The notes beneath the pieces are model-generated. The model worked only from the letters and a program-made list of their open reading frames with translations. It was not told where the DNA came from and ran no database searches. A stretch of 58,989 bases of DNA, the filler included, from Basidioascus undulatus (Eukaryota): NCBI GenBank assembly GCA_000826855.1. It is 8 parts of 8 records of this genome, joined end to end, with 100 filler letters (N's around TTAATTAATTAA, not from the genome) between each part and the next. Parts side by side here need not be neighbours in the genome. Positions count along the whole stretch, not along the records: positions 44,355 to 51,626 come from JTLS01001586.1; 7 more parts are not named here. One strand, given 5' to 3'. This document shows, piece by piece, positions 7,305 through 58,989 of the stretch (positions are counted from its first letter, which is position 1; each line of letters begins with the position of its first letter). The position numbers and the translations under genes are program-made.

Positions 7305-7404
7305 NNNNNNNNNNNNNNNNNNNNNNNNNNNNNNNNNNNNNNNNNNNNTTAATTAATTAANNNNNNNNNNNNNNNNNNNNNNNNNNNNNNNNNNNNNNNN
7401 NNNN
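7305..7404. other. Artificial contig linker
   Basis: N44-TTAATTAATTAA-N44 (stops in all six frames). Confidence 0.98.
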
Positions 7405-14702: not shown

Positions 14703-14802
14703 NNNNNNNNNNNNNNNNNNNNNNNNNNNNNNNNNNNNNNNNNNNNTTAATTAATTAANNNNNNNNNNNNNNNNNNNNNNNNNNNNNNNNNNNNNNNNNN
14801 NN
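14703..14802. other. Artificial contig linker
   Basis: N44-TTAATTAATTAA-N44. Confidence 0.98.
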
Positions 14803-22091: not shown

Positions 22092-22191
22092 NNNNNNNNN
22101 NNNNNNNNNNNNNNNNNNNNNNNNNNNNNNNNNNNTTAATTAATTAANNNNNNNNNNNNNNNNNNNNNNNNNNNNNNNNNNNNNNNNNNNN
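22092..22191. other. Artificial contig linker
   Basis: N44-TTAATTAATTAA-N44. Confidence 0.98.
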
Positions 22192-24395: not shown

Positions 24396-27300
24396 ATGAC
24401 GACCAAGCGCGGCAGCGTGCAGCAGAACGGGCATGGCGGGGCTGGGGCAGGGCCGGTCACGACGAGCGTGCAAGTCGGTGAGTGGCAGCGAGGACCTGTG
24501 GTTGTGCGGTGCGGTCGTACGGATCGCGGAGGTGGAACTGGGCAGGCAGATGCGGGCTGTCCCTTGCCTTGGCTCGAAGGCGACCCCTGCGCACCCACTA
24601 CCTAGCATCCCCCTTCCTTGCGCCAGGCGACTGACGTCTCTTTCCCATTTCCAGCTCTGCGTATCCGACCGACCACGCCCCAGGACGCCATCTCCATCCC
24701 GACGCGGTGGCAGCGCTCCGTGATCCAGCCCCTCTCCTCCACCTCCATCTCCGTCGACGTCGCGCCCTCCGCGCCAGGCGGGACGCCCTCCAAGCCTGGC
24801 AAGGCCGGCGCGGACAAGGTCACGTTCAGCTTCGATCGCGTACACGGGCCCGACGCGGGCCAGGCGGACCTCTACCGCGAGACGGCCGAGCCCCTCGTCC
24901 GCAAGTTCATCGAGGGCTTCAACGTCACTGTGCTCGCGTACGGGCAGACCAGCTCGGGGAAGAGCTACAGCAGTGCGTCTGGCTCCCCGGAGGATCGTGG
25001 AGGACATGGGCAAGAGGATTGACCTGGGGGTCGTCTGGGACAGTGGGTACTTCCGGCCTCGACGCCGACTACGACTCGTCCCCCTCCCCCGACGCCGACT
25101 CCCGACTCGGCATCATCCCGCGCGCGGTCGTGCAGATCTTCCAGCTGCTCTCTCAGAAGCCGGCCAACACGTTCTCGTACCAGATCAAGAACAGCTTCAT
25201 CGAGATCTACAACGAGGACCTGATCGACCTCCTCGCGGACGGGACGGCGGGCGCGGTGCAGATCCGCGAAGCGACAGACGGAACGATCATCTGGTCCGGC
25301 CTGCGCGAGTCGGCCGTGCGCTCCGCAGGGGACGTGATGGCGAACCTGAAGGCGGGCTCGGCGCTCCGCCAGACAAACCACACAGACATGAACGCCCAGT
25401 CGTCCCGCTCGCACGCTATCTTCTCCCTCACCCTCGTCCAACGCAAGTACGTCGGGTCGAACCCCCCGTCCCCCGCACCGGCCGCGCCCTCGACCCCGCA
25501 GCGCCAGAGCGGCATCGCGCGCCCGGGCCGCGTCGCCAGCCCGACGTTCGGCAGCAGGCCTAACACCCCCTCGAGCTTTGCTGCGCTCGGCAGCGGAAAG
25601 AGCGCCCTCCGCCCGCCCAGCGTGCTCGGAAACCGCTCGCCCAGCCCGGCGTTTGGCGCGCGCGACGAGGACGAGGGGCGCAAGGCGGGGGGAGACGACG
25701 GTGACTGGGTCACCATTACCAGCAAGTTCCACTTCGTCGATCTGGCTGGGTCGGAGCGTGTGCGTTCTTGTTCTTCTACCTCCGCCCCTCCTCGGCCTCG
25801 ACTGCTGAACCGGGATGCGGGGATTAGCTCAAGCGCACAGCCGCTCAAGGCGAGCGCCGATCCGAGGCCATCTCGATCAACTCGGGCCTCCTCGCGCTCG
25901 GCAATGTCATCTCCGCGCTCGGCGACCCGTCCGTAGCCAAGCGCACGACGCACATCCCGTACCGGTAAGGCTGTACCCTCAGAGCGTGTACTTCTCAGCC
26001 GCTGATCCTCCTTTGCTCCGATTCATAGAGACTCGAAACTCACTCGCCTCTTGCAAGACTCGCTGGGCGGGAATGCGCAGACGTGAGTAATACGCAGGTG
26101 GAGGGGTAGGGCGGAGACGCGAAGCTGACTGCTGGAGGGGTTGATAGGACCATGATCGCTTGTGTCAGCCCGGCCGAGTACAACACGAACGAGACCCTGA
26201 ACACGCTCAAGGTACAGTCCCTCCATTCTGCCTGGCCGGAGCTAGCCGGCTTACGTGTATTTCTACAGTACGCCAACCGCGCGCGGAACATCAAGAGTAC
26301 GCCGTCCTTCCCGCCCTGCCAGTCCAAGCCAGCAGAACGCTGACTTTCTACCACATTCTTCAGACAAGGCCGAAGTGAACGAGGTTGAAGTCGGGTGGGA
26401 CGACGTAGACTACCTGCAGTCGACGGTGACGAAGCTGCGGCGCGAGCTGGCGTCGCTCAAGGGCACGGGCAAGCTCCCCCCCGGGGGCGCATCGGACGCG
26501 CGCCTGAAGGAGGAGTACACGAACCTCGAAAGCAAGTACGAGGCGCGCACGTCCGAGCTCGACCGCCTCAAGCGCGAGCTCGCAGAGCAGCCCGTCGCTG
26601 TCCCCAGCTCGCCCACGACTGCTGCCAGCAAGGCCAGCTCGTTCGCGGAGATGGTCGCGCCGGTTATTGAGGAGTACGAGAAGACGGTGTGTTGCGGTTG
26701 CGGTTGCGGTTGCTGGGGAAAGAAGAGCGGTGCTGACTGGTTTGGAGTGCGGGTTACAGATCAGCTCGCTGGAGAGCGAGCTGAAACTTACGAAGGCTGC
26801 TCTGGTGCGGTGCTGCGTAGTCTACACTTGAGTGGTCTTGGGAGCTGACACTATTGCCGTGCGCAGTCTCATACGAACGCGGTCTTCGTCGACAAAGAGA
26901 CGGAGCTTGAGGAGCTGGCGGAGCGGCATTCGTCAAGCCTCACGCTCATCGAAGACCTCAAGTTGCGCGTCTCGCGGCTGGCCGACCGCGAGTCGACGAC
27001 CGAGAGTTATGTGCGTCATCCACATTTGGATCAGGGTTCAAAGGTGCCGTATTGACTCGAAAATTCAGGTTCGCGAGCTCGAGGACAAGATCAAGGCGTA
27101 CTCCGAAGGCGACGACGCGTCTGCCGTGTCGATCAGCGAGCTCCGCAAGGACATCGCGCGGTACAAGGAGCAGGAGGCCAACACGGAGAAGTACATCAAG
27201 GACCTCGAGGCGAAGCTGGCGCGGACGGACGAGGGCTCCGCGGCGCTCGCGGCGCAGGTCGAGAAGCTCGAGCGGCAGGCTGCGGAGCGCGATGAGGCGT

Positions 27301-29480: not shown

Positions 29481-29580
29481 NNNNNNNNNNNNNNNNNNNN
29501 NNNNNNNNNNNNNNNNNNNNNNNNTTAATTAATTAANNNNNNNNNNNNNNNNNNNNNNNNNNNNNNNNNNNNNNNNNNNN
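29481..29580. other. Artificial contig linker
   Basis: N44-TTAATTAATTAA-N44. Confidence 0.98.
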
Positions 29581-31072: not shown

Positions 31073-33788
31073 CTAAGCCGCTTTGGGCCCGTGTGGCTTC
31101 CTGCCTTCGCCTTCGATAGGATTGCACCGCTTGACCAGGAGCGGCAGGCCGCCGCGCGGCTTCATGGTGATGGCCGAGTCTGCAGATGCGTTAAAGTCAT
31201 CAGCGAAGCGACCGAAAGGATAAGGAATACGCGAAAGAGCTCACCCGCTGCAACTTTCTGACCAGGTTCCGCGAGCTCGAACTCAAAGTTGGCGATGAGG
31301 GTGCAGAGAACGGCCTTCATCTCGACTGCAGCGGGGTAAATGAGGGTGCGGTGATGCGAGATCAGTGTCATCCAAGACACCCTTTCATACAGACTTCACT
31401 CACGAATAGACATTGCTCGACCGATGCACGCGTGCGGTCTGGAATGGGCAAAGCGTCAAGTGAGAGATCGTCTCCCCAAGCAGTCATCCAAGCCGCCGAG
31501 TGCTCACCCAGCGATGAAGCTCAACAGCGAGAATTGCGGGTTGTAGCGCTCGGGGAGGTCGAGCCATCGCTCTGGTCTGACTGCAGACGAAGACCAACGA
31601 CCGGTCAACCGCAGACCGACGGCACACATGCTCAAAAGGTCCTCTTACAGTCTTCAGCATCGCTTCCCCAAACACGAGGGTCCATGTTAACGACTCGGTT
31701 CGCAATGTAGAGGTAGGTCCCCTTGGGCACCCACGTCCCGTCGATCCAATCGCTCTTCGCCGCGATGCGCATCGTGGCTGGCACCGGCGGCTGAATTCGG
31801 AGGGTTTCGTGAACGACGCAGTCTAGGTACTTGAGCTCCTTAACCATACGGTAACCAGGCATCGAGTTGACGTTGACGAGCTGCGGGTCGGAATGAGCGG
31901 ATGTCATCGCGGCGGCGCGAGGAACGGTCGGCCGGTGCCGCTCACATCCTGACATTCCTCTCGAAGCTTTGCTTGCGCTTTCTGATTGTTCGCCAGCAGC
32001 CAAAGCGCCCAGGTACAGCCCGAGGCGGTCGTCTCGTGGCCGGCACCGAGGAAAGTGAGCACTTGATCCTCCATCGCCTCTGCGATGCGGGAACCGACGA
32101 AGGATCTGGCACTGTCAGCGAATGCACAGTGCTCCTGCGAACAAGCTCGCGTAAACCGCGTGCCACTCGCCACTCACTATCGTCCATCTTGAAGCTTTCT
32201 TCAGCCGAAAGATTCGCCCTGACGAGCAGGCTGAGGATATCCTTTTTGCCGCCGCTCTTTCCCTCAGCGCCGAGCTTCTCCGCCTCCTGGATCTTTTCGC
32301 GCAGCAAGCCCCGACTGATCTGTTTGATCGTGTACATGCTCTGCGCAAAGGTGCCTGCGGTGCACCGCGGCCGATGCGATGAACGACGAGATACATGTTA
32401 GCTTTCTTTCTTGAAGAGACGCCGAAGGGACCACGGCCGCCACCTACCGATGAGCTTGAAGTGCTCTATGCCGGTTACTCGGTAAAAGGCGTTGAACACG
32501 CGAGGTGACCATGGCCTGAGGTAGAAGAAGCAGCGTGATCAGATGCGTGATGTTTGGGGTCAACCGGCCTTCTCTCAAACCGGACACTCACTGGTCATTC
32601 AGCCACGTTGCGACTTGAGGAGCAAAGGGGAGGGACAAGAGAACAAAGAGCACCGCCAGGTTAGGGCCGCTCTGAAGGTCTGCGCGCGGAGACGGAGGTG
32701 AGAGGGGCCTATGGCTCGCAAGACGACGTATGGCTGTCGCTGCTCACTGATAAGATTGCTGTATGCCACAGAGAGGGGCACGTCCGGGTTGTGCACGCTG
32801 TTCACCTCGTACCCAAAAGCGGTGATGCCGATGATGTCAAGCAGGCATCGCGAGATCCACTCGTAGCAGTCCAAAATGGCGCCCTTGGACGGATCCTCCG
32901 ATCGCTGGATCTCCGCCTCGAGCTGTTTCACCAGGCCGGTGATCGGACCGTAGTACATGTTAAACTCTGGGAAAGGGGAGCAGCAGAGCAGAAGCGGTAA
33001 GGCCCTTGACGTTCAGCCACGCTGATTCAGTCGGAGGGCTCACGCGGCACAAGGTTCGTCATCGAGAAAGCAGGACTGCGGGCGGAGAAGCAGCGTCAGC
33101 CGACGAGCTCGGGTTCTCCATCGTGATCCACCCCGTCTGCCCGCCTTCACTCACTTCATGAACCTCCTCATCGCCTTGTGCTTCGGCCCTTCCACCGTGA
33201 GAAGACCGTACCCGGCTGCTTGGCCTAGCACGTTGGACACGAAAGCCGGCTGCAACGAGCAAGAAGGATCGAACTGAGAATTGTCAATGCAGAGGTAGGA
33301 TGCAGCGCGCGGACGCTCCGATTCACTCGCCTTGGGGTACTCGTACGCATCATCCACCAGAATCTTCTTGAGAGCCTCCGGACGAAGGAAGATCAATCGC
33401 TCGAGCCCGAAAGGACCTGCCGCTCGAATGACGCCCTTCTCCCCGTACTGCAAAAGGTGGACCACGCCGTCAGGCGCCTGAGCTGCGTCCAACTTGCGGC
33501 CAACAACCAACTCCTTTGGGTACCCACCTGCTTGTTCCATTGCATTTGCAAAATGCCTGCCTCCGTGGCCAGGATGGGCCCCATTTGGCCCCACAGCCAG
33601 TGGCCGTACTCTGGCCCCGGCAGGCGACGGAGAGGGGAAAAGAAGCGCGCATAGAGGCAGATCCTGAAGACGACGTAGGCCACGAGAAGCAGAATGACGC
33701 CGCCGTACAAGTGCGAGCGAGGTGTGTGATAGAGATAACTTTGCACCTTGTCCAGCGCTGACCCTGGGGATGCCTCAAAGCGTGTCAT
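31073..33788 (-). CDS. Cytochrome P450 monooxygenase, multi-exon
   Basis: N-terminal TM followed by SPLRRLPGP; GLLTVEG..H; I-helix FLGAGHETTA; ETLR; spliced heme motif FIAG|PHACIG; EMKAVL; stop TAG at 31073-31075. Confidence 0.93.
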
Positions 33789-36868: not shown

Positions 36869-36968
36869 NNNNNNNNNNNNNNNNNNNNNNNNNNNNNNNN
36901 NNNNNNNNNNNNTTAATTAATTAANNNNNNNNNNNNNNNNNNNNNNNNNNNNNNNNNNNNNNNNNNNN
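36869..36968. other. Artificial contig linker
   Basis: N44-TTAATTAATTAA-N44. Confidence 0.98.
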
Positions 36969-44254: not shown

Positions 44255-44354
44255 NNNNNNNNNNNNNNNNNNNNNNNNNNNNNNNNNNNNNNNNNNNNTT
44301 AATTAATTAANNNNNNNNNNNNNNNNNNNNNNNNNNNNNNNNNNNNNNNNNNNN
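44255..44354. other. Artificial contig linker
   Basis: N44-TTAATTAATTAA-N44. Confidence 0.98.
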
Positions 44355-44411
44355 TAGATGCAGCAGTGCCAGCTCCCACCATTTTATACACGAGAGTATG
44401 AAAGGGACTAT

Positions 44412-46080
44412 AACGGCGGTTTGCTTCTTTGATGTCCATGCAATTGCGCCTCCAGAAAGGATGAACATGTATCCGGATGTCGAGCGTCGTGAACCGATGT
44501 CGCCCGCCCAGTCGGCGTCGCAGAAGCCGATTGGTAGTGTTTCAGGAGTGCGGTAGTATGTGATCTCGTAGTCGATTGTACCGTTCAGGTAACGTAGAAC
44601 TTGCTTGACTCCATTCCAGTGTGAGCGTCCGGGATTCGAGGAGAATTGGCTGAGAATGCCGATTGTGAAGGTGAGGTCGGGTCGAGTGCCGAGCATGGCG
44701 TACATGAGCGATCCAATTGCGCTCTGGTATGGGATCTTCGCCATGTTCTCTTGTTCGTCCTTGGTAGTCGGGCCGTCTTCTTTTGAGAGTTTGATTCCGG
44801 ATGCAAGCAGCGTAGAGGTGGGTTTAGCGTTGTCCATGTTGAAACACTGCAGCATGGTGCTGATGTAGTGCGCCTGCGAGATTGAAAGTGTTCGCTGCAC
44901 CCGGTCACGATGGATCTGGATGCCGAGGATGTAGTGTGCTTTGCCGAGGTCCTTCATGTCATATCGCTTCTCGAGGTTGGCCTTGAGGTTGTTGATACCG
45001 GGGAGAGACATAGACATGATGAGGAGGTCGTCGACATAGAGTGCGATGTACGTTGGTCCGTGTCTGTTGGTCCGGAAGTAGATGCAGTGGTCCGCCTCGA
45101 TCGGGGAGAAACCGAGTGCAAGTAGATCGCCGTCGATCTTCTGGTACCAGGTTCGACTCGCCTGCTTGAGACCGTAGAGACTTTTCTTGAGCTTGCATAT
45201 GAGCTTCTTGTTCTCCGCCTCGAAGCCTTCGGGTTGCGTCATGTAGACGTCCATATCGATGTCACCATTGAGGACTTGACGTCCATCTGATGGATGTCGA
45301 GGTCCTCTGCCGCTGCGATTGCGAGAATAAGTCGGATGGAGTTGAACTTTGCAACGGGAGCAAAGGTTTCGTCATAGTCGATTCCGGTGGTTTGCAAGTA
45401 GCCCTTTGCAACGAGTCGTGCCTTGTATCGCTCGATTTCGCCCTGTGCGCCATACTTGATTTTGAATACCCATTTGCAGCCGATTGCACGTCGATCCTTT
45501 GGTATTTCGACGAGATCCCAGGTGCTGGCGCGTTGTATCGAGTCCATTTCGGATTGCGCCTCCTCCTCCCACTGTCGCCTGTCAGGGCCCTGTAGTGCCT
45601 CTGCGTATGTGGCTGGCTCGGATGTGGCTGCTGCAAGGTTGGCGCGCATAACGTGATTCCGCTCCGAATGTCGAGTAGGTGGTCCATATGTCTTCTTGCT
45701 TCGGCGAGCTGGTGCGCTAGGAGTTGTCTCGGGTGTCGGATCTTGTGTGAAGTCCTCTCGTCGTCCGAAGTGACGGGTTGCGATGGTGAAATTGGTTCGG
45801 TGAATGGTTCGGGTTCGATGTCCTCGGAACTTGATGTGGTGTCGTCGATCTCGAGTTCGATGAGACGCTCGTCCTTCTTCTCTCAATGAATGTGACGTCT
45901 CGTGTCGAGATGACCTTGCGTGTCGAGGGGATGAAAATCTTGTAGGCCTTCTGTGTGTGGGAGTAGCCAATGAAAGTTCCCTTGATCGCCTTCGGATCGA
46001 ACTTCGTGCGCTCGTGCTTTGGGCGATGAACAAGTGCCACGCAGCCGAATGTGCGGAGATGAGCGATGGATGGCCTTTTT
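44412..46080 (-). mobile_element. Ty1/copia pol fragment (post-integrase SH3-like region, RT, start of RNase H); no LTRs seen
   Basis: HLRTFGC..KFDPKA..FIGYS; CKWVFKIK..RYKARLVAKG; ETFAPV; HQMDVK; SLYGLKQASRTW; LYVDD; GFCDADWAG..RRSTSGY; WTSKKQ. Frameshift near 45274; truncated at both ends. Confidence 0.95.
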
Positions 46081-46496
46081 AAAAGAACATACCCGGATAC
46101 CTGCAGATTGTAATTGGGAGCTCGCTTTGGCGAATGCCGCTGGCTGTGCCATCCTTGAAATTCTTGCTGCCCATGCTTGAAAGGATGCCCTGTATGCTTC
46201 TGAGCATGAAGCTTTTTTGAGTCTATGATAAGGATTGTTCGTGAATATTTTCCGTTGCTCTTACCATTAATTCTTGTGGAAGGAGCATGTCAACAGTCGT
46301 ACTTGTCCCCGGCAGCGGGCTGCACGCCGACCGCCTGTGGCACAGTCTGTAGCCTCTTGGCACGGCAGGCGGGCATATGTCCAATGATTTGATGAAGAAA
46401 AACTAAAGACTACGTACACATGGCCCGAGGAGCTGTTCACCACCCGTATCGCACTGCGTCTTCATTACTTTCGAAGATTCAGCTTTCACTGTGGGG

Positions 46497-46501
46497 AAAA
46501 A
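46497..46501 (-). terminator. RNA Pol III oligo-T terminator (T5)
   Basis: TTTTT begins 2 nt after A37 of the tRNA 5' half. Confidence 0.65.
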
Positions 46502-46503
46502 GA

Positions 46504-46588
46504 TACGAGTGGCGCGCTCTACCACTGAGCTAAAGGGGCATTACATGATTTATGCCCCCTGGCTGGATTGAACAACCGACCTCACCAT
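46504..46588 (-). tRNA. Circularly permuted tRNA-Thr(CGU): 3' half 46588-46553, 13-nt spacer, 5' half 46539-46504
   Basis: The halves GCCCCTTTAGCTCAGTGGTAGAGCGCGCCACTCGTA and ATGGTGAGGTCGGTTGTTCAATCCAGCCAGGGGGCA join into a 72-nt cloverleaf with all four stems paired and anticodon CGT. Confidence 0.85.
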
Positions 46589-46598
46589 TTCGCAATTA

Positions 46599-46609
46599 CC
46601 ACTCGAATA
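46599..46609 (-). promoter_or_regulatory. A-box-like element upstream of the tRNA 3' half
   Basis: TATTCGAGTGG has one mismatch to TRGYNNAGYGG and lies about 25 nt upstream of the B box (46573-46565). Confidence 0.5.
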
Positions 46610-47560
46610 ACCAAGCAGTGATGATGACCCAGAGTATTTTAAGGTCAGTCACCTGATGTTGGAAGGCAACCGAGTTTGCCCTCCTATGAGAACTTCTTCT
46701 TCCTAACACCAAGTTTTTAGAATACAAGTGGACTTGTCTAGAAATTATAAATCAAACCGTGCATTGCATGAAGTCTCTCTGAAAGGCAGGTGTGGACATG
46801 GCGTTTTTTCAAAACGGGCTGTACATATTGCGCCACCCAGGGTTGCCTAAATTACAAAATGGTGCACCGGGATTATTCTCTTCAGGCATACTGAAGCTGT
46901 GCTTACCCACTGAGCATTCGAGCGTAGCACAAGGTCAACCGTGACGAGGCCCGCCAGGTATGTATGTCCCGGACGGGTCGCAGGTCTTTAGTGTCCTGTG
47001 TCCCGCTTTCTGGAGGGGAAAATTTTGCCCATGAACAGATAAGTTGTGCACCATTGAGTCTTGGTTGTACCGCTGTACATGAACCGTCGCGATTCAAGGT
47101 GGAAAGCCCTGATGGAATAGCTGAACGAGCTCCGTGTCTATGGCTCAGCTTTGTCTTCCTTTTTTTTTCCGAAAGACAGTTTATGTTTGTACTGTAGGTA
47201 ACATCGCCAAAACAGAGCCGCACAATTCGTACCACTTTGGGGGGCGGCGTGCTGGTAACGCTCTGACCAGTTCGAGACTGGTGACTCCCATCTTTAGGTT
47301 CATGTGTTTCATGGGCAGGCATTTCTATGTTCGAAACCCCAATCTACCCTCGCATTCTGCCATGCTCATAAAAGAACACATCAGTGCAAGCTAAGCTTTT
47401 GCTCCTCAAATGAACCAACAAATCTCGCTGCGCTTAGTTTCATGTGAAGTAGAACTCATCCTCACGCTGTAAGTCAATGTCTTCGACGGCGAGGCGTTGC
47501 AGACATGGCAAAGGGGTCAAGGCATTGGTCTTTGAAAATCTGAAGCCTGGCAGGGCGACC

Positions 47561-48064
47561 TCATCCAAGAGTTGAAAATGTAGGGGCAGCGAGGACGGAT
47601 TTGAGTGACGCGGGAGGGCACTGCACAGTTAGCCGAGAAAGGGGAATCAGCTTCCTCCATGTCCGGAGAAGAACCAGGGACCAGTCGGCGTTTCTGACGT
47701 GAATCGAGTGGTTGAGACACGGCAGTGACAGCGAGTGGACAAGCGAAAGCAGCTCGTTGTTCTGGCCAACCGTGCGAGCGAACAGGCGGTAACGCTCGAT
47801 GATGCGGTGCGCAAGTTGCCCAAATAAGCTGCGGAGGTGCATGCGGGGATTGTGAAGAATTTTGGACTCGCTTGAATTGAACCGTGGCCCAAGCTCAATT
47901 GAGGAGTAGAGTCCGGGCGTGCCCATGGCGTTGCAAGCACGATCAACGAGGCATAATGTGGCGAGCGCGCCGTAGTCTCTGCGGTATGCGAGCGGGTGGG
48001 ACGGCGCCGCGACCTGATTAACGACCAGCTTGATGACGTCGAACGACAGCTGAGGAGGAGCCAT
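47561..48064 (-). pseudogene. F-box-like protein, probably truncated
   Basis: MAPPQLSFDVIKLVVNQV..LATLCLVDRACNAMGTPGLYSSIEL..LFARTV..LLSLVHSL is a typical basidiomycete F-box-like N-terminus; it stops after about 167 aa. Confidence 0.5.
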
Positions 48065-48944
48065 TGTGCGAATGCGAGGGTTTCGAGGATGAGAGGGACG
48101 GGTTGCGTGGTGTGAGTGGGTTGGTGGCCAGAAAGGCAAAGGTAAGGAGCAACTCAGCTCTTGGCTTTCTTTGAAGCCCCCCGAAATGTTCAAATTTTCA
48201 AGGGTGGGAAACGGAGGGACCGTGACATCGTGACATCGAACACGAGTTTGCCGGCGGCGGCAGCACGAGCATTCGTGATCCTCTGGCATAGCCACTGATC
48301 TTCAAGCCGATATTCTTGGTTCAGTGCAGGAAAATCCGGGCGCGAGCTCGTTATCTCATATTGAAATGAATACACGTCTCGGAAGAAGTACAGGACGCTG
48401 TGCAGAGACACTTGATTGGCAGGCGTCTTGCACTGATGCATGCCTACCCTCATACTGTTGTCCATCATCCCTGAGAATCAAATTAGGGTCGCCAAAACGA
48501 TGTTCTCCAAGTCCGAATTAGGTACCGCCCAAGCAGTGACTATGAAGGAGGTAAGTCAGGGCAGGGCAACAAGACCAACATTGGCGCAGGTCCTTCATGT
48601 CTCTTTTGCTGTCATGCAACATCACCACGTAATTGACCGTCGGCACCTGAAATCCTGTCCAGAAGGTCAGGGTCCTTGCGCGAAGCATCACATGCAACGA
48701 CTCTCTGCTCAGGTCCACAGTTGCAGCAATAGAACGCAGAGCCGGCGCGAAGCGCATCCGTCAACGCCCATCCCGAAGCCGAGCAAGATCTCTCTTGCTT
48801 TTGGGGTAACTTGTGCGCAAGGCAAAGAGGCCTTCCTTACCATTCCGCAGCGTCCATTCAAACGTTCCATGAAGTCCGTCGACCCGTCTTCCACTCTCAT
48901 CAGTCGTACAACCCCTCCTCCCCATCTTCCACCTCTCCCTCGAC

Positions 48945-51390
48945 CTAAAGCGCCCCCCAAACCACCCTCCCATCCACCACCGTCGCCCTCACCTTCACAT
49001 CCAGCACCTCCTCCTCCTCTACCTCCATCACGTCCCTCTCCAAAACCGTAAAATCCGCCCTTTTCCCAACCCTCAAGCTCCCGGTCACATTCTCCGCGAA
49101 CGCGGCATAGGCAGGCTCGAGCGTGAGCCCGCGCAGGGCCTCGGCGTGCGTGAGGCGCTGGGCGGGATACCATCCCGACGGGCCGTGCGGGGATGTGGAG
49201 GAAGGTGAGAGGCGGGTGATTGACGCTGTTGGGAGAGAATGTTAGTGGAGAGGAAGTGGAAGGGGGCGGAGGGGCGCACCGTGGAACGTCTCGAGTAGGC
49301 CAATGCGCTCGACGGGGAAGTCGGTCCCGAGGGGGAGGCGGACGGAGTTTCTGCCCGTCCTAGCACTTTCAGTCATATCCTACGAAAACGACTGTTTGCA
49401 TAACCAACGCACTTAAGCAGAGTCCGCCAAGCATATGCTCCTTTAATACGCTCCGGGCCCTGCACCCCACCATTCTCAGCCCCCTTCCACTCTGCCACAA
49501 CTTTCTCACCATCCGCCTCAACGCACCAGTCGCTCCTCAGCGTACCACATATCACTCGTCGCATGAGTCGGCTGGACACTCGCAATGACTGTCCCACCCT
49601 CCTCAAATCAGCCACTTCGCCTTCCCACCTTCTTTTTCGCCCCACCGACCTCCAAGCTCCCCCAACCGCTCAACGTCCTGAGGAGTCAGGATCTGCGCGT
49701 GCTCGACCCGCAGCCGCGGGGTGTTAGCGCCCGGGGGGTCGCCGATGGAGCGCAGGGCGGCGGCGAAGGCGTCGAGCTTCGTTGCTTTCACGTTCATAAA
49801 CGCGGGGGAAATGGGAGGTAAAAGCACAGGATGGACCCACGACAACGGTGTTCGCTTTGTCCTACCCTCCCGCAAGGCTCAGTAAGCGACTGACTGCGTT
49901 CGAACAGGCGAAAGGGAACGCACCCCAATCCCATGCGCGTTCACTTGGAAGCCCTATCCCCCCACACTAGAGCCCATATTTTCTCAATACCTCTAAGCCA
50001 TTATTGAAAATGCGTACCGCGTCCACCCACTGCTGCACCAGCGGCCCAAACGCCTCCTCCGGTGCCTTGAGGATCCCGCGCGTGTCGGGCTTGTCTGATT
50101 TCTTCAGGTAAGCATCCCTCCCCCTCTCACCTCCCACGAGGAAAGGAGGAGGGCTCGAACGCACCGGAGTACGGCTCGTGCAGCGCTGCGCCCCAGCTTC
50201 CGAGGGCGCCTGCTTCGTACACCATCAGCGTCGTGTTTTCCTCCTTCGTTGGAAGACGCACCGTCTGTGAAGATCTTAGCTGCCCTGAACCACGCTAAGG
50301 TTATAAGAAAAGGAACTTGGGAAGCCGGAGAGAGGAGGGAAGACGCACCGCACAGTCAGATGCCCATCTGCGTAGCCATCCAGCCGCTCAACCTCGTCCC
50401 GGCAGAAGCGCATCCCGCAGTCAACCATGGCGTAGAGCTTGATCTACCCTTCCGCACAACATGAGTTTGACCGCTTCTTCCCTTTCCACATCACTTTTGT
50501 CAACCGTCGAAGACGCACGGGAAGGTGTCCTTCGCCCGCTGCCCTTCGCGTTCCAATCCCGACATCAGCCTGGCGAACACAAGGGAAGGGAGAAAGGGTA
50601 GCGAGCGCACTTTTTGAAAAATCTCAAATCCTCTGGCGTCGCCGCCGCGTCGTGCACGCCAACGAGCCCGCGTTCGAGCATGTCTTGCGTGGTTCTTTGG
50701 AGGTACGCCAAGCGCTGTGCGTCGGTAGTAGGAGGTATATGTCGTGCTGCCCCAACTCTATCATAAGCCCAAGGCTCCAAAATACCAGACATCCGAAAGC
50801 CGAAGACCCACAAACCAGCTCCATAGCATTATCAACCAGGACCCCCGTCGCCTGCCCGCTCTCATCGCGGACGATTAGCCCGCCCTCCACCGTCTCCGGC
50901 AGGGAACCAGCGATCCTTCGCACGACGTTATATGATCCAAGTAAGGCAGAAGGAAGGGGGAAGGGGGCAGAACGTACTCGAGTGCCCGCGGAGAGACCCA
51001 CGACGCGTGCACGTCGATCCGCGTGAGGACGATCGGCCTGCCGGCGAGGAGGGGGTCGGACGCGAGCTCATCGGGGGTGGGGAAGGCGGGCGGGGTGAAG
51101 CGGGTTTGATCCTGGTCCGATCAAGGGATCGGTCAGAGGGAGAAGGGGAGAGAGGGGGGAAGGTAGGGACGCACCCAGCCGGCCCCTTCGATCCATCGTG
51201 TTCGGTCGGAAGTGAGGGAGGGGTCGGCGAGGATGTACGTGCGGAGGCGGTCGACGACCTCTGTGTGTGGAAGGGGTTAAGGAGGAGGAGGGAGGAGAGG
51301 GAGGGGAGAGGTACCGGAGACGGAGGAGCATCCTTCCAGAGAGAGAGACTGCGCCTTCCCGTATGCAAGGACGTGCGCGTGCGCGTCGAG
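48945..51390 (-). CDS. Amidohydrolase-3 (YtcJ-like) protein, multi-exon, N-terminus missing
   Basis: DAHAH; RIDVHASWV; GVLVDNAM; VHDA; KIFTD-GALGSWGAAL; HGIG-DKAN; RVEHAQI; SVQPTH; GTDFPVE; GSLRVGKRADFTVL; TVVDGRVV; stop at 48945-48947. Confidence 0.9.
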
Positions 51391-51626
51391 GCGGAGCACT
51401 TTGAGGATGTGTCCCCGAAGAGCGCGGCCGCTGTCAAGGCTGTACAGTTGCAGGAGGGGGAGACGGCGCAGGAGGAGGTGAAGGTGCCGGCTTATCGGCT
51501 GACGGTGCGTCGATCCTCGTTTCCTCTCTTGCTTTCTTCTGCCTTCAACCCCTCGGCGCCTTCGCCCGTTACTGAGAAGACACTGATCTGGCACGCGGAC
51601 AGTGTTCAATGGATGGACAAGGCCTC
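51373..51626 (+). CDS. RPC25: C-terminal fragment of RNA polymerase III subunit Rpc25 (RPC8/POLR3H)
   Basis: VRVRVEAEHFEDVSPKS...VPAYRLT, intron 51505-51602, then CSMDGQGL. This resembles the Rpc25 C-terminus (IRFRIE..FVDVKPKS..PAYALLGSCQTDGMG, recalled). Confidence 0.7.
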
Positions 51627-51726
51627 NNNNNNNNNNNNNNNNNNNNNNNNNNNNNNNNNNNNNNNNNNNNTTAATTAATTAANNNNNNNNNNNNNNNNNN
51701 NNNNNNNNNNNNNNNNNNNNNNNNNN
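51627..51726. other. Artificial contig linker
   Basis: N44-TTAATTAATTAA-N44. Confidence 0.98.
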
Positions 51727-54489: not shown

Positions 54490-55172
54490 TGGGGGATTTG
54501 AGGGATTTGATGAGGGGGTTGGGAGGATTGAGCGCGCGGTGGATGTGGCGGAGGCGACGATGCGCCGGATGGTGGGAGGGAGGGACGACACGGTGGGCGG
54601 TGGGAAAAGGGGGTTAAATAGCGAGAATGGAGCAGCACGAACGCACGCACGCACGAACGAACGAACAAGAGCAGGCGGTGTCTTCCCCAGGATCTGCTGG
54701 GTGAGAGCCACGGACTGTCCTCGGTCGCCAGCACGTGCCTCGAATCGATGCATTACAGCGACTGCTGCGATGCTGGAGATGGAAAGTCCACTTGCACCCT
54801 CAACATCGTCATTTCCCTCAACTGACGCGGCAATTCAAACGGTCAAGTCTCTCGACATCTGGCTCTGTGCTCGTTGCGGCGAAGCGGGAACTGCAACGCG
54901 TTGCGTACGGAACGACTCGATCGCACCGACACGTTTCCACCTCGCTGGCTTCCCCTTCCTGAGCTGCCCTCGCTCGGAGTGGACGTTGGGATACTGCGAT
55001 AAAGTCCTGCACGCGGGAACTCTATATCCTGTGAGTGATCTTTTCTCCAAATCGAGTATCCAGCCGCCCGCTTCCCATCGACTCCTCGGAAATCCCCGAT
55101 CTTCTCATCGTCTTCTCCCTTACCAGCCCCACCCCCACCTTCTCCTCCTCCCATCTCTCTTCCGCCGCCGGC

Positions 55173-58989
<3,817 letters not shown>

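Follow-up and report, generated by a model that had tools for sequence, protein, structure and literature searches.

A probable circularly permuted tRNA-Thr(CGU) gene in the genome assembly of Basidioascus undulatus

Circularly permuted transfer RNA (tRNA) genes, in which the tRNA's 3′ half is encoded upstream of the 5′ half, form a class with a defined set of hosts. Table 1 of PMC3978253 lists 34 of them, from the red alga Cyanidioschyzon merolae, four green picoalgae (Ostreococcus and Micromonas), the nucleomorph of Bigelowiella natans and the archaeon Thermofilum pendens, and gives intervening sequences of 1–74 bp. For the algal genes, section 4 of the same paper describes a T stretch after the 5′ half, TATA-like sequences upstream and no encoded CCA. 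A 2026 review names only unicellular algae among eukaryotes (PMC13578239), and a 2026 paper on plant TSEN cites C. merolae as the sole eukaryotic precedent (PMC13728533). Here, we analyse a stretch of 58,989 nucleotides from the Basidioascus undulatus assembly GCA_000826855.1 (hereafter the window), in which contig JTLS01001586.1 carries, on the minus strand at 46497–46588, a candidate permuted gene for tRNA-Thr(CGU).

Comparison of the sequences indicates that this locus is probably a working, circularly permuted (type II, 37/38) nuclear tRNA-Thr(CGU) gene and one of a small family in a basidiomycete-like fungus. The titles and abstract beginnings of the open papers searched contained no report of a fungal permuted tRNA gene, and the permuted gene would be in a kingdom without an earlier report in the literature searched. 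An earlier reading of this DNA, made from the sequence alone, had named the same groups of hosts as table 1 of PMC3978253 and knew of no fungal example; the literature searched agrees with it on both counts.

Layout of the unit and comparison with described systems

The unit and its immediate signals comprise the following features.

46588–46553, minus strand: tRNA 3′ half, positions 38–73 (A38 to A73)
46552–46540, minus strand: intervening spacer of 13 nt, a loop closing the acceptor stem, without CCA and without a T run
46539–46504, minus strand: tRNA 5′ half, positions 1–37 (G1 to A37)
46503–46497, minus strand: trailer, TC followed by T5 (46501–46497), a candidate RNA polymerase III (Pol III) terminator directly after A37
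46589–46605, minus strand: leader, corresponding to an intron's 3′ part in the minimum free energy (MFE) and centroid folds
46642–46635, minus strand: TATA-like TTAAAATA, whose start lies 54 nt upstream of A38, a candidate upstream Pol III promoter element

A direct read of the minus strand gives the 3′ half, the 13-nt spacer and the 5′ half on one strand, followed by TC and T5, which is the order that the sequence-only reading had described. Joined from their coordinates, the halves form a 72-nt cloverleaf, bearing out its claim that they complement one another without gap or overlap. Its placement of the break at 37/38 is compatible with the sequence, and 36/37 can also be read, since the base preceding A38 is likewise an A. 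The 3′ half consists of the anticodon-stem 3′ strand TGGTG, the variable region AGGTC, the T arm GGTTG/TTCAATC/CAGCC with a B-box-like TGTTCAATCCA inside it, the acceptor 3′ strand AGGGGGC and the discriminator A73. The 5′ half runs through GCCCCTT, TA, the D arm GCTC/AGTGGTA/GAGC, G26, CGCCA and CTCGTA, with an A-box-like TAGCTCAGTGG in the D arm (46532–46522) and the anticodon C34 G35 U36 at 46507–46505 in the loop CUCGUA.

With the halves joined by script, ARAGORN returns tRNA-Thr(cgt) of 72 nt with four regular stems, a good cloverleaf of the identity proposed earlier, and the call persists at 115% of the program's threshold. All eukaryotic consensus elements looked for are present: U8, A14, G15:C48, G18G19, A21, U33, A37, G53, U54U55C56, A58, C61, G1-C72 and A73, with no CCA encoded. 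In native order, ARAGORN finds no tRNA gene in the whole window (~58 kb), Rfam gives no match in the window at gathering thresholds, and no Rfam tRNA (RF00005) match appears at E up to 10 within 46350–46750. At that E value, the locus yields only weak matches to YrlA, mir-2001 and SNORD48, which we treated as noise or hairpin echoes.

As a chance control, every 74–100-nt segment of the window (1,555,226 in total) was treated as a circle and passed to ARAGORN. The scan gave 313 calls, 282 at the locus and the other 31 in seven small clusters, which shrink to one at 105% of the threshold and to none at 110%; the cluster that survives at 105% (28050) is an artefact of 83% G+C. The sequence-only reading had seen no partner halves in the contig, and this extends to the whole window, where neither half has a second copy with up to 3 mismatches allowed. 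Neither half therefore belongs as an exon to a conventional gene whose partner lies close by. The T5 at 46501–46497, which the same reading had placed right after the anticodon half, is the sole run of at least four Ts within 46700–46470 on the same strand, and the spacer holds no terminator.

The closest described genes are those of C. merolae, whose type II genes include Thr(CGT) and Thr(AGT) (Soma et al. 2007; as covered in PMC3978253) and, as here, place the 3′ half first on one strand with the break at 37/38. Further shared traits are a short spacer (7–74 nt there, 13 nt here), the T stretch, a candidate TATA-like sequence upstream, the lack of an encoded CCA, the consensus nucleotides and the isoacceptor Thr(CGU) itself. 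C. merolae differs in being a red alga with broad bulge–helix–bulge (BHB) recognition, whereas the present host is a fungus (an opisthokont) in which a ruler-type heterotetrameric endonuclease is expected. It also uses junctions at 20/21, 50/51 and 59/60, in contrast to the canonical intron position alone here. Moreover, expression through a circle has been shown there, whereas the present gene is known from sequence, and here several copies seem to exist for the one anticodon.

In Ostreococcus, Micromonas and the B. natans nucleomorph (Maruyama et al. 2010; as covered in PMC3978253), almost all permuted genes are likewise type II, with spacers of 5–64 nt, but these genomes belong to the green lineage, and their permuted genes serve chiefly Ser, Leu, Cys, iMet, Arg and Asn, with no Thr among them. 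Thermofilum pendens (Chan et al. 2011; as covered in PMC3978253) shares the principle of permutation and processing by the tRNA-splicing endonuclease, while differing in being archaeal, in having its junction within the T loop (59/60), and in carrying further introns and a strict BHB. Ordinary fungal intron-containing tRNA genes have the same break position, 37/38, and the leader and trailer here resemble the 3′ and 5′ parts of an intron. In contrast to those genes, the exons here stand in reverse order and the ‘intron’ consists of leader and trailer, open rather than a closed loop, so that ligation must circularise the RNA. This arrangement fits a model discussed in PMC3978253, by which an intron-containing gene is duplicated in tandem and its outer halves are then lost. 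In YrlA (RF02553), the T arm comes first, followed by the acceptor stem and the D arm, the source of the weak match noted above, but it is bacterial and without an anticodon arm, whereas the anticodon arm here is complete and split at 37/38. At 19.4 bits, the match lies well under the YrlA gathering score of 69.

Sister copies and the predicted precursor

Two sequencing runs from different studies, X1 and X2, were compared with the locus at the level of contigs. Sister loci are known from alignment summary tables that take in contigs at least 85% alike, and all substitution, indel and loose-end figures below are among the rows listed there. In each run, depth sums indicate three contigs besides the locus’s own that cover the spacer and are colinear across the unit. 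The sequence-only reading had proposed a search for further permuted copies, and these contigs supply them. The individually resolved examples are as follows.

X1 contig of 28,968 nt: 46504–46595, 11 differences, 1 gap
X2 contig of 12,390 nt: 46504–46595, 11 differences, 1 gap
X2 contig of 10,859 nt: 46504–46594, 9 differences, 3 gaps
Soil-metagenome contig of 151 nt: 46510–46593, colinear over the permuted unit

The layout is thus kept in three contigs per run and one soil contig, with four distinct variant sets across both runs. Variation is unevenly placed: 13 of the 17 substitution rows in 46504–46595 fall in the spacer and four in the acceptor stem, and the D, anticodon, variable and T regions have none. 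The spacer varies at 9 of its 13 positions and holds all six listed indel rows, so that sister spacers would measure roughly 8–13 nt. In the acceptor stem, one contig (depth 47.6 in X1, 17 in X2) combines 46536 G>A (C4>U) with 46557 C>T (G69>A), a compensatory change from C4-G69 to U4-A69, and 46534 A>G (U6>C) turns U6·G67 into C6-G67.

The boundaries of similarity are equally sharp. On one side, likeness to the sister loci ends at 46504 (A37); on the other, it ends at 46591–46595, 3–7 nt upstream of A38, in four X1 and five X2 contigs, so that the GAA preceding A38 is kept in all of them. In the 30-letter loose ends, read by eye, an RTGGY motif stands 6–13 nt further up in each sister flank, and the studied locus has GUGGU at −14 to −10. 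The only sister downstream flank among the rows listed, also read by eye, has TTTT 7 nt past A37. These comparisons make the locus most likely part of a small family of permuted tRNA genes of type II (37/38). The occurrence of the same permuted layout with variable spacers elsewhere in the organism speaks against tandem-duplication debris, and the interpretation given in the sequence-only reading is supported and strengthened by the sister copies. A conventional-order copy left no joint and no two-place record among the contigs listed; since contigs show presence only, this is not used as evidence of absence.

The same two runs bear on the integrity of the locus itself. X1 and X2 contain 96–98% of the sampled words of 46300–47500, and the assembly may derive from one of them. 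Among the runs listed as containing the locus, none is an RNA run. Exact contigs in both runs cover 45968–46533, which takes in the unique downstream flank, the trailer and the 5′ half to position 7, and 46566–47500, which takes in the 3′ half from position 60, the leader and the unique upstream flank. The permuted order is very unlikely to be an assembly error. The arrangement proposed earlier is thereby upheld in both runs for both flanking joins, whereas the stretch between them, 46534–46565, is unbridged among the contigs listed; we infer that the unitigs break there at words common to the copies.

Upstream, TTAAAATA is the sole AT-rich motif that a regular-expression scan finds in 46700–46470. 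Its candidate promoter role follows from the TATA-like sequences upstream of the algal permuted genes described in section 4 of PMC3978253. The 54-nt distance compares with the ~50 bp looked for upstream of a 3′ half and applies to this one locus, the sister upstream flanks being visible for 30 nt.

The precursor was modelled as a 104-nt RNA (46600 to 46497), for which MFE and centroid structures alike form a cloverleaf with the acceptor stem closed by the spacer loop (−32.9 kcal/mol; z = −2.07 against shuffles). In this fold, leader positions −6 to −2 (UGCGA) form a 5-bp helix with U33–A37, A(−1) and A38 are bulged, and the resulting 2-nt bulge holds the 3′ cut site; alternatively, G(−3) could pair with C32. 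Under the anticodon–intron pair rule, an intron base pairs with position 32, a role that G at −3 could take here with C32. Further up, leader CGAGUGGU (−17 to −10) is complementary to G28–G35. The predicted fold resembles the general architecture of an intron-containing pre-tRNA with the intron opened, in which the leader would act as the intron 3′ part and the trailer as the intron 5′ part.

On this model, Pol III would start some 10–25 nt upstream of A38, perhaps placed by TTAAAATA at 46642–46635, and the transcript would run from the leader through the 3′ half and the 13-nt spacer into the 5′ half, stopping in the T5 after A37. It would fold into a normal tRNA body, with the acceptor stem closed by the spacer loop and the leader paired with the anticodon loop like an intron. 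The tRNA-splicing endonuclease would cut before A38 and after A37, and the tRNA ligase would join A37 to A38 to give an 85-nt circle, from which RNase P and tRNase Z would excise the 13-nt spacer before CCA is added. We infer this maturation pathway (cuts, circle, RNase P, tRNase Z) from algal precedent. The break coincides with the sole eukaryotic tRNA intron position. [quoted passage not shown]

Host assignment and competing explanations

The window consists of eight contigs of 7,263–7,304 bp, longest first, joined by seven N44-TTAATTAATTAA-N44 linkers (7305–7404, 14703–14802, 22092–22191, 29481–29580, 36869–36968, 44255–44354 and 51627–51726). Because the contigs are joined, features across a linker are not genomic neighbours. 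The contig of the tRNA gene spans 44355–51626 (7,272 bp) and has one end in a repeat. The gene that informs on the host lies on the last contig.

55035–58988, plus strand: exons encoding a P-type ATPase of PMR1 type (Ca2+/Mn2+; domains Cation_ATPase_N, Cation_ATPase, Hydrolase and Cation_ATPase_C)

Its exon 56933–57928 has 120 relatives among the matches listed, at 42–58% identity. By our own grouping, we take about 100 of these 120 to be basidiomycete, four glomeromycete and one plant, with 15 bearing no taxon label. The assembly therefore looks like that of a basidiomycete, in line with the fungal origin assumed in the sequence-only reading, with the link to the gene’s contig being indirect. 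With the best relatives at only 42–58%, the protein collection holds no close annotated relative of this organism. Other proteins were less informative: querying the atlas with the PMR1 exon yielded no informative taxa, the open reading frame (ORF) 50827–51624 on the gene’s contig had no match in the protein search and none in the atlas, and the copia reverse transcriptase of that contig matched plants, one arachnid and metagenome proteins at 34–55% identity, which is uninformative for taxon.

Several observations weigh against a working permuted gene of a fungus. Relative to a normal Pol III gene, the two boxes are swapped, the B-box-like element standing upstream of the A-box-like one. When the leader is lengthened, the MFE falls to −37.1 from −32.9 kcal/mol as CGAGUGGU pairs with G28–G35 and the anticodon stem opens, and in the strict archaeal BHB register, by inspection, only three of four central pairs form, with C32-G(−3) possible. 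In budding yeast, splicing follows end trimming; in that order, the precursor would be cut in two before ligation, although the pieces could stay paired. Among the sister copies, 46558 C>T (G68>A), present in the soil contig and in an X2 contig (depth 45.6), would disrupt C5-G68, provided that no partner change lies outside the rows listed. Variant sets also differ by run, with one in X1 only and one in X2 and the soil run only, and the 85% bound on the tables favours conserved copies. To these are added the unbridged 46534–46565 of the locus and the fungal assignment through a gene on another contig of the same record.

The main alternative, which we consider unlikely, is that the copies are a dispersed tRNA-derived repeat, such as a short interspersed nuclear element (SINE)-like, mobile or duplicated sequence, or decaying relics of a single old tandem duplication that spread later, while a conventional gene elsewhere supplies tRNA-Thr. 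That the copies share the tRNA parts plus 3–7 nt of leader, that the studied copy lies ~430 nt from a 5′-truncated Ty1/copia fragment, and that G68>A among the rows listed would break a stem pair are all consistent with such a repeat. However, a young repeat should show even similarity throughout, and an old neutral one even decay, whereas the differences here concentrate in the spacer (13/17 substitution and 6/6 indel rows listed) and spare the D, anticodon and T arms, and one acceptor pair has changed on both sides. Similarity stops exactly at the junction nucleotide A37, with nothing common beyond 92 nt, neither tail nor body, and by its depth the interval 46103–46504, which separates the gene from the copia fragment, is single-copy. 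An improbable alternative is a transcribed product other than a decoding tRNA, either a 5′ tRNA-half-like small RNA running from the A box to T5 or a tRNA-like regulatory RNA. The A-box-like 46532–46522 and a terminator 20 nt past the D arm could define a short Pol III unit, and YrlA, matched weakly at 19.4 bits, has a permuted tRNA-like domain. Yet that score is far under 69 and YrlA is bacterial; a half-RNA would need no intact, co-varying acceptor 3′ strand and T arm, both of which are conserved among the copies, and the anticodon loop and both anticodon-stem strands are complete.

We give similarly little weight to an origin of the contig in a co-sequenced alga or protist with known permuted tRNA genes. 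Such an origin would be compatible with a window of unrelated joined contigs, in which PMR1, the sole taxon-informative gene, is on another contig and the proteins of the gene’s own contig gave no taxon. Against it, the locus’s contigs and the sister contigs are equal in depth (45–51 in X1, 16.7–17 in X2), each run totals ~34–35 Mb, the size of a single fungal genome, and the tetranucleotide correlation of the gene’s contig with the other seven (0.72–0.90) is as good as that of those seven among themselves (0.77–0.93). Least credible of all is a permuted order produced by collapse of repeated tRNA sequences during assembly. Consistent with it are the shortness of the contig (7,272 bp), the repeat at its end and the lack of any listed X1 or X2 contig across 46534–46565, but exact contigs of two studies join each half to its unique flank, neither flank contains the missing partner within 2–5 kb, and other loci of the same order are bridged inside contigs of 12–29 kb. 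A swap between permuted loci would leave each of them permuted, which further disfavours an artefact.

Beyond the preferred reading of a permuted tRNA-Thr(CGU) gene family, a wider proposal can be put forward tentatively, as one we would not yet rely on: permuted genes alone may encode the entire tRNA-Thr(CGU) isoacceptor of a basidiomycete lineage, and this essential tRNA would routinely be made via a circle by a ruler-type Sen endonuclease and a Trl1-type ligase, with an independent origin of the permutation in opisthokonts. If the permuted reading is true, such genes extend to opisthokonts, a group with excellent genetics and well-understood splicing machinery; if Thr(CGU) is permuted-only, the pathway would be no peculiarity of algae with archaeal-like BHB recognition. 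This raises the questions of whether a ruler-type eukaryotic endonuclease and a yeast-type ligase can circularise a pre-tRNA, how a precursor whose B box precedes its A box is transcribed, and how the precursor stays intact where end trimming normally precedes cytoplasmic splicing. Standard tRNA finders miss permuted genes, and an isoacceptor apparently missing from a fungal genome may be hidden there in permuted form.

Surroundings of the gene and related loci in other collections

The gene’s contig also carries a retrotransposon fragment.

44355–46124, minus strand: Ty1/copia retrotransposon fragment, 5′-truncated, with an SH3-like integrase tail and RVT_2, running off the contig end

It lies on the same strand as the permuted tRNA gene and downstream of it, with at least one frameshift between its ORFs. 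Its match to full-length polyproteins begins near residue 630, at 46079–46124, and copia copies in the same organism part from it near 46063–46076. Depth tables place the end of the repeat near 46076 and show 46103–46504 to be single-copy; the permuted gene therefore stands ~430 nt from the copia truncation point, not at it. The possibility that the tRNA halves are a relic of a retrotransposon primer-binding site was rejected, since the tRNA sense strand is the strand of the copia ORFs and hence not complementary. The start of the copia match at about residue 630 and the single-copy 46103–46504 in between further disfavour it.

Elsewhere on this contig, a 246-aa open frame (47561–48301, minus strand) has coding-like GC1/GC2/GC3 of 0.59/0.50/0.62 and no Pfam family found; its seven weak relatives (best E 8e-10) are all metagenome proteins, unnamed or ‘hypothetical’, and gave no taxon. 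Two other contigs of the window carry a kinesin motor-domain exon (24635–25933, plus strand) and a cytochrome P450 exon (31635–32114, minus strand), respectively.

Collections other than fungal ones were also scanned for the arrangement. A search for this T arm, an 18–48-nt gap and this D arm found no loci in the JGI metagenome, prokaryotic genome and viral contigs. A looser scan of metagenome contigs gave 28 loci, none of them a relative of the fungal permuted gene; 24, with 1–5 of 7 acceptor pairs, look like neighbouring conventional tRNA genes, and L019, with 7/7 acceptor pairs, was rejected as a tandem repeat of one conventional tRNA. The other three, L017, L021 (1470–1570) and L024, lie on contigs of 9.8–15 kb and share a unit that runs from a T arm and acceptor 3′ strand through a 6-nt spacer to the acceptor 5′ strand, a D arm and the start of an anticodon arm. 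These units have 7/7 acceptor pairs and no native-order ARAGORN or Rfam call, with a conventional tRNA-Lys ~1.1 kb away; treated as circles, they are mostly called ‘Tyr(ata)’. They may represent a phage or prokaryotic permuted tRNA, or else a tRNA mimic from such a source.

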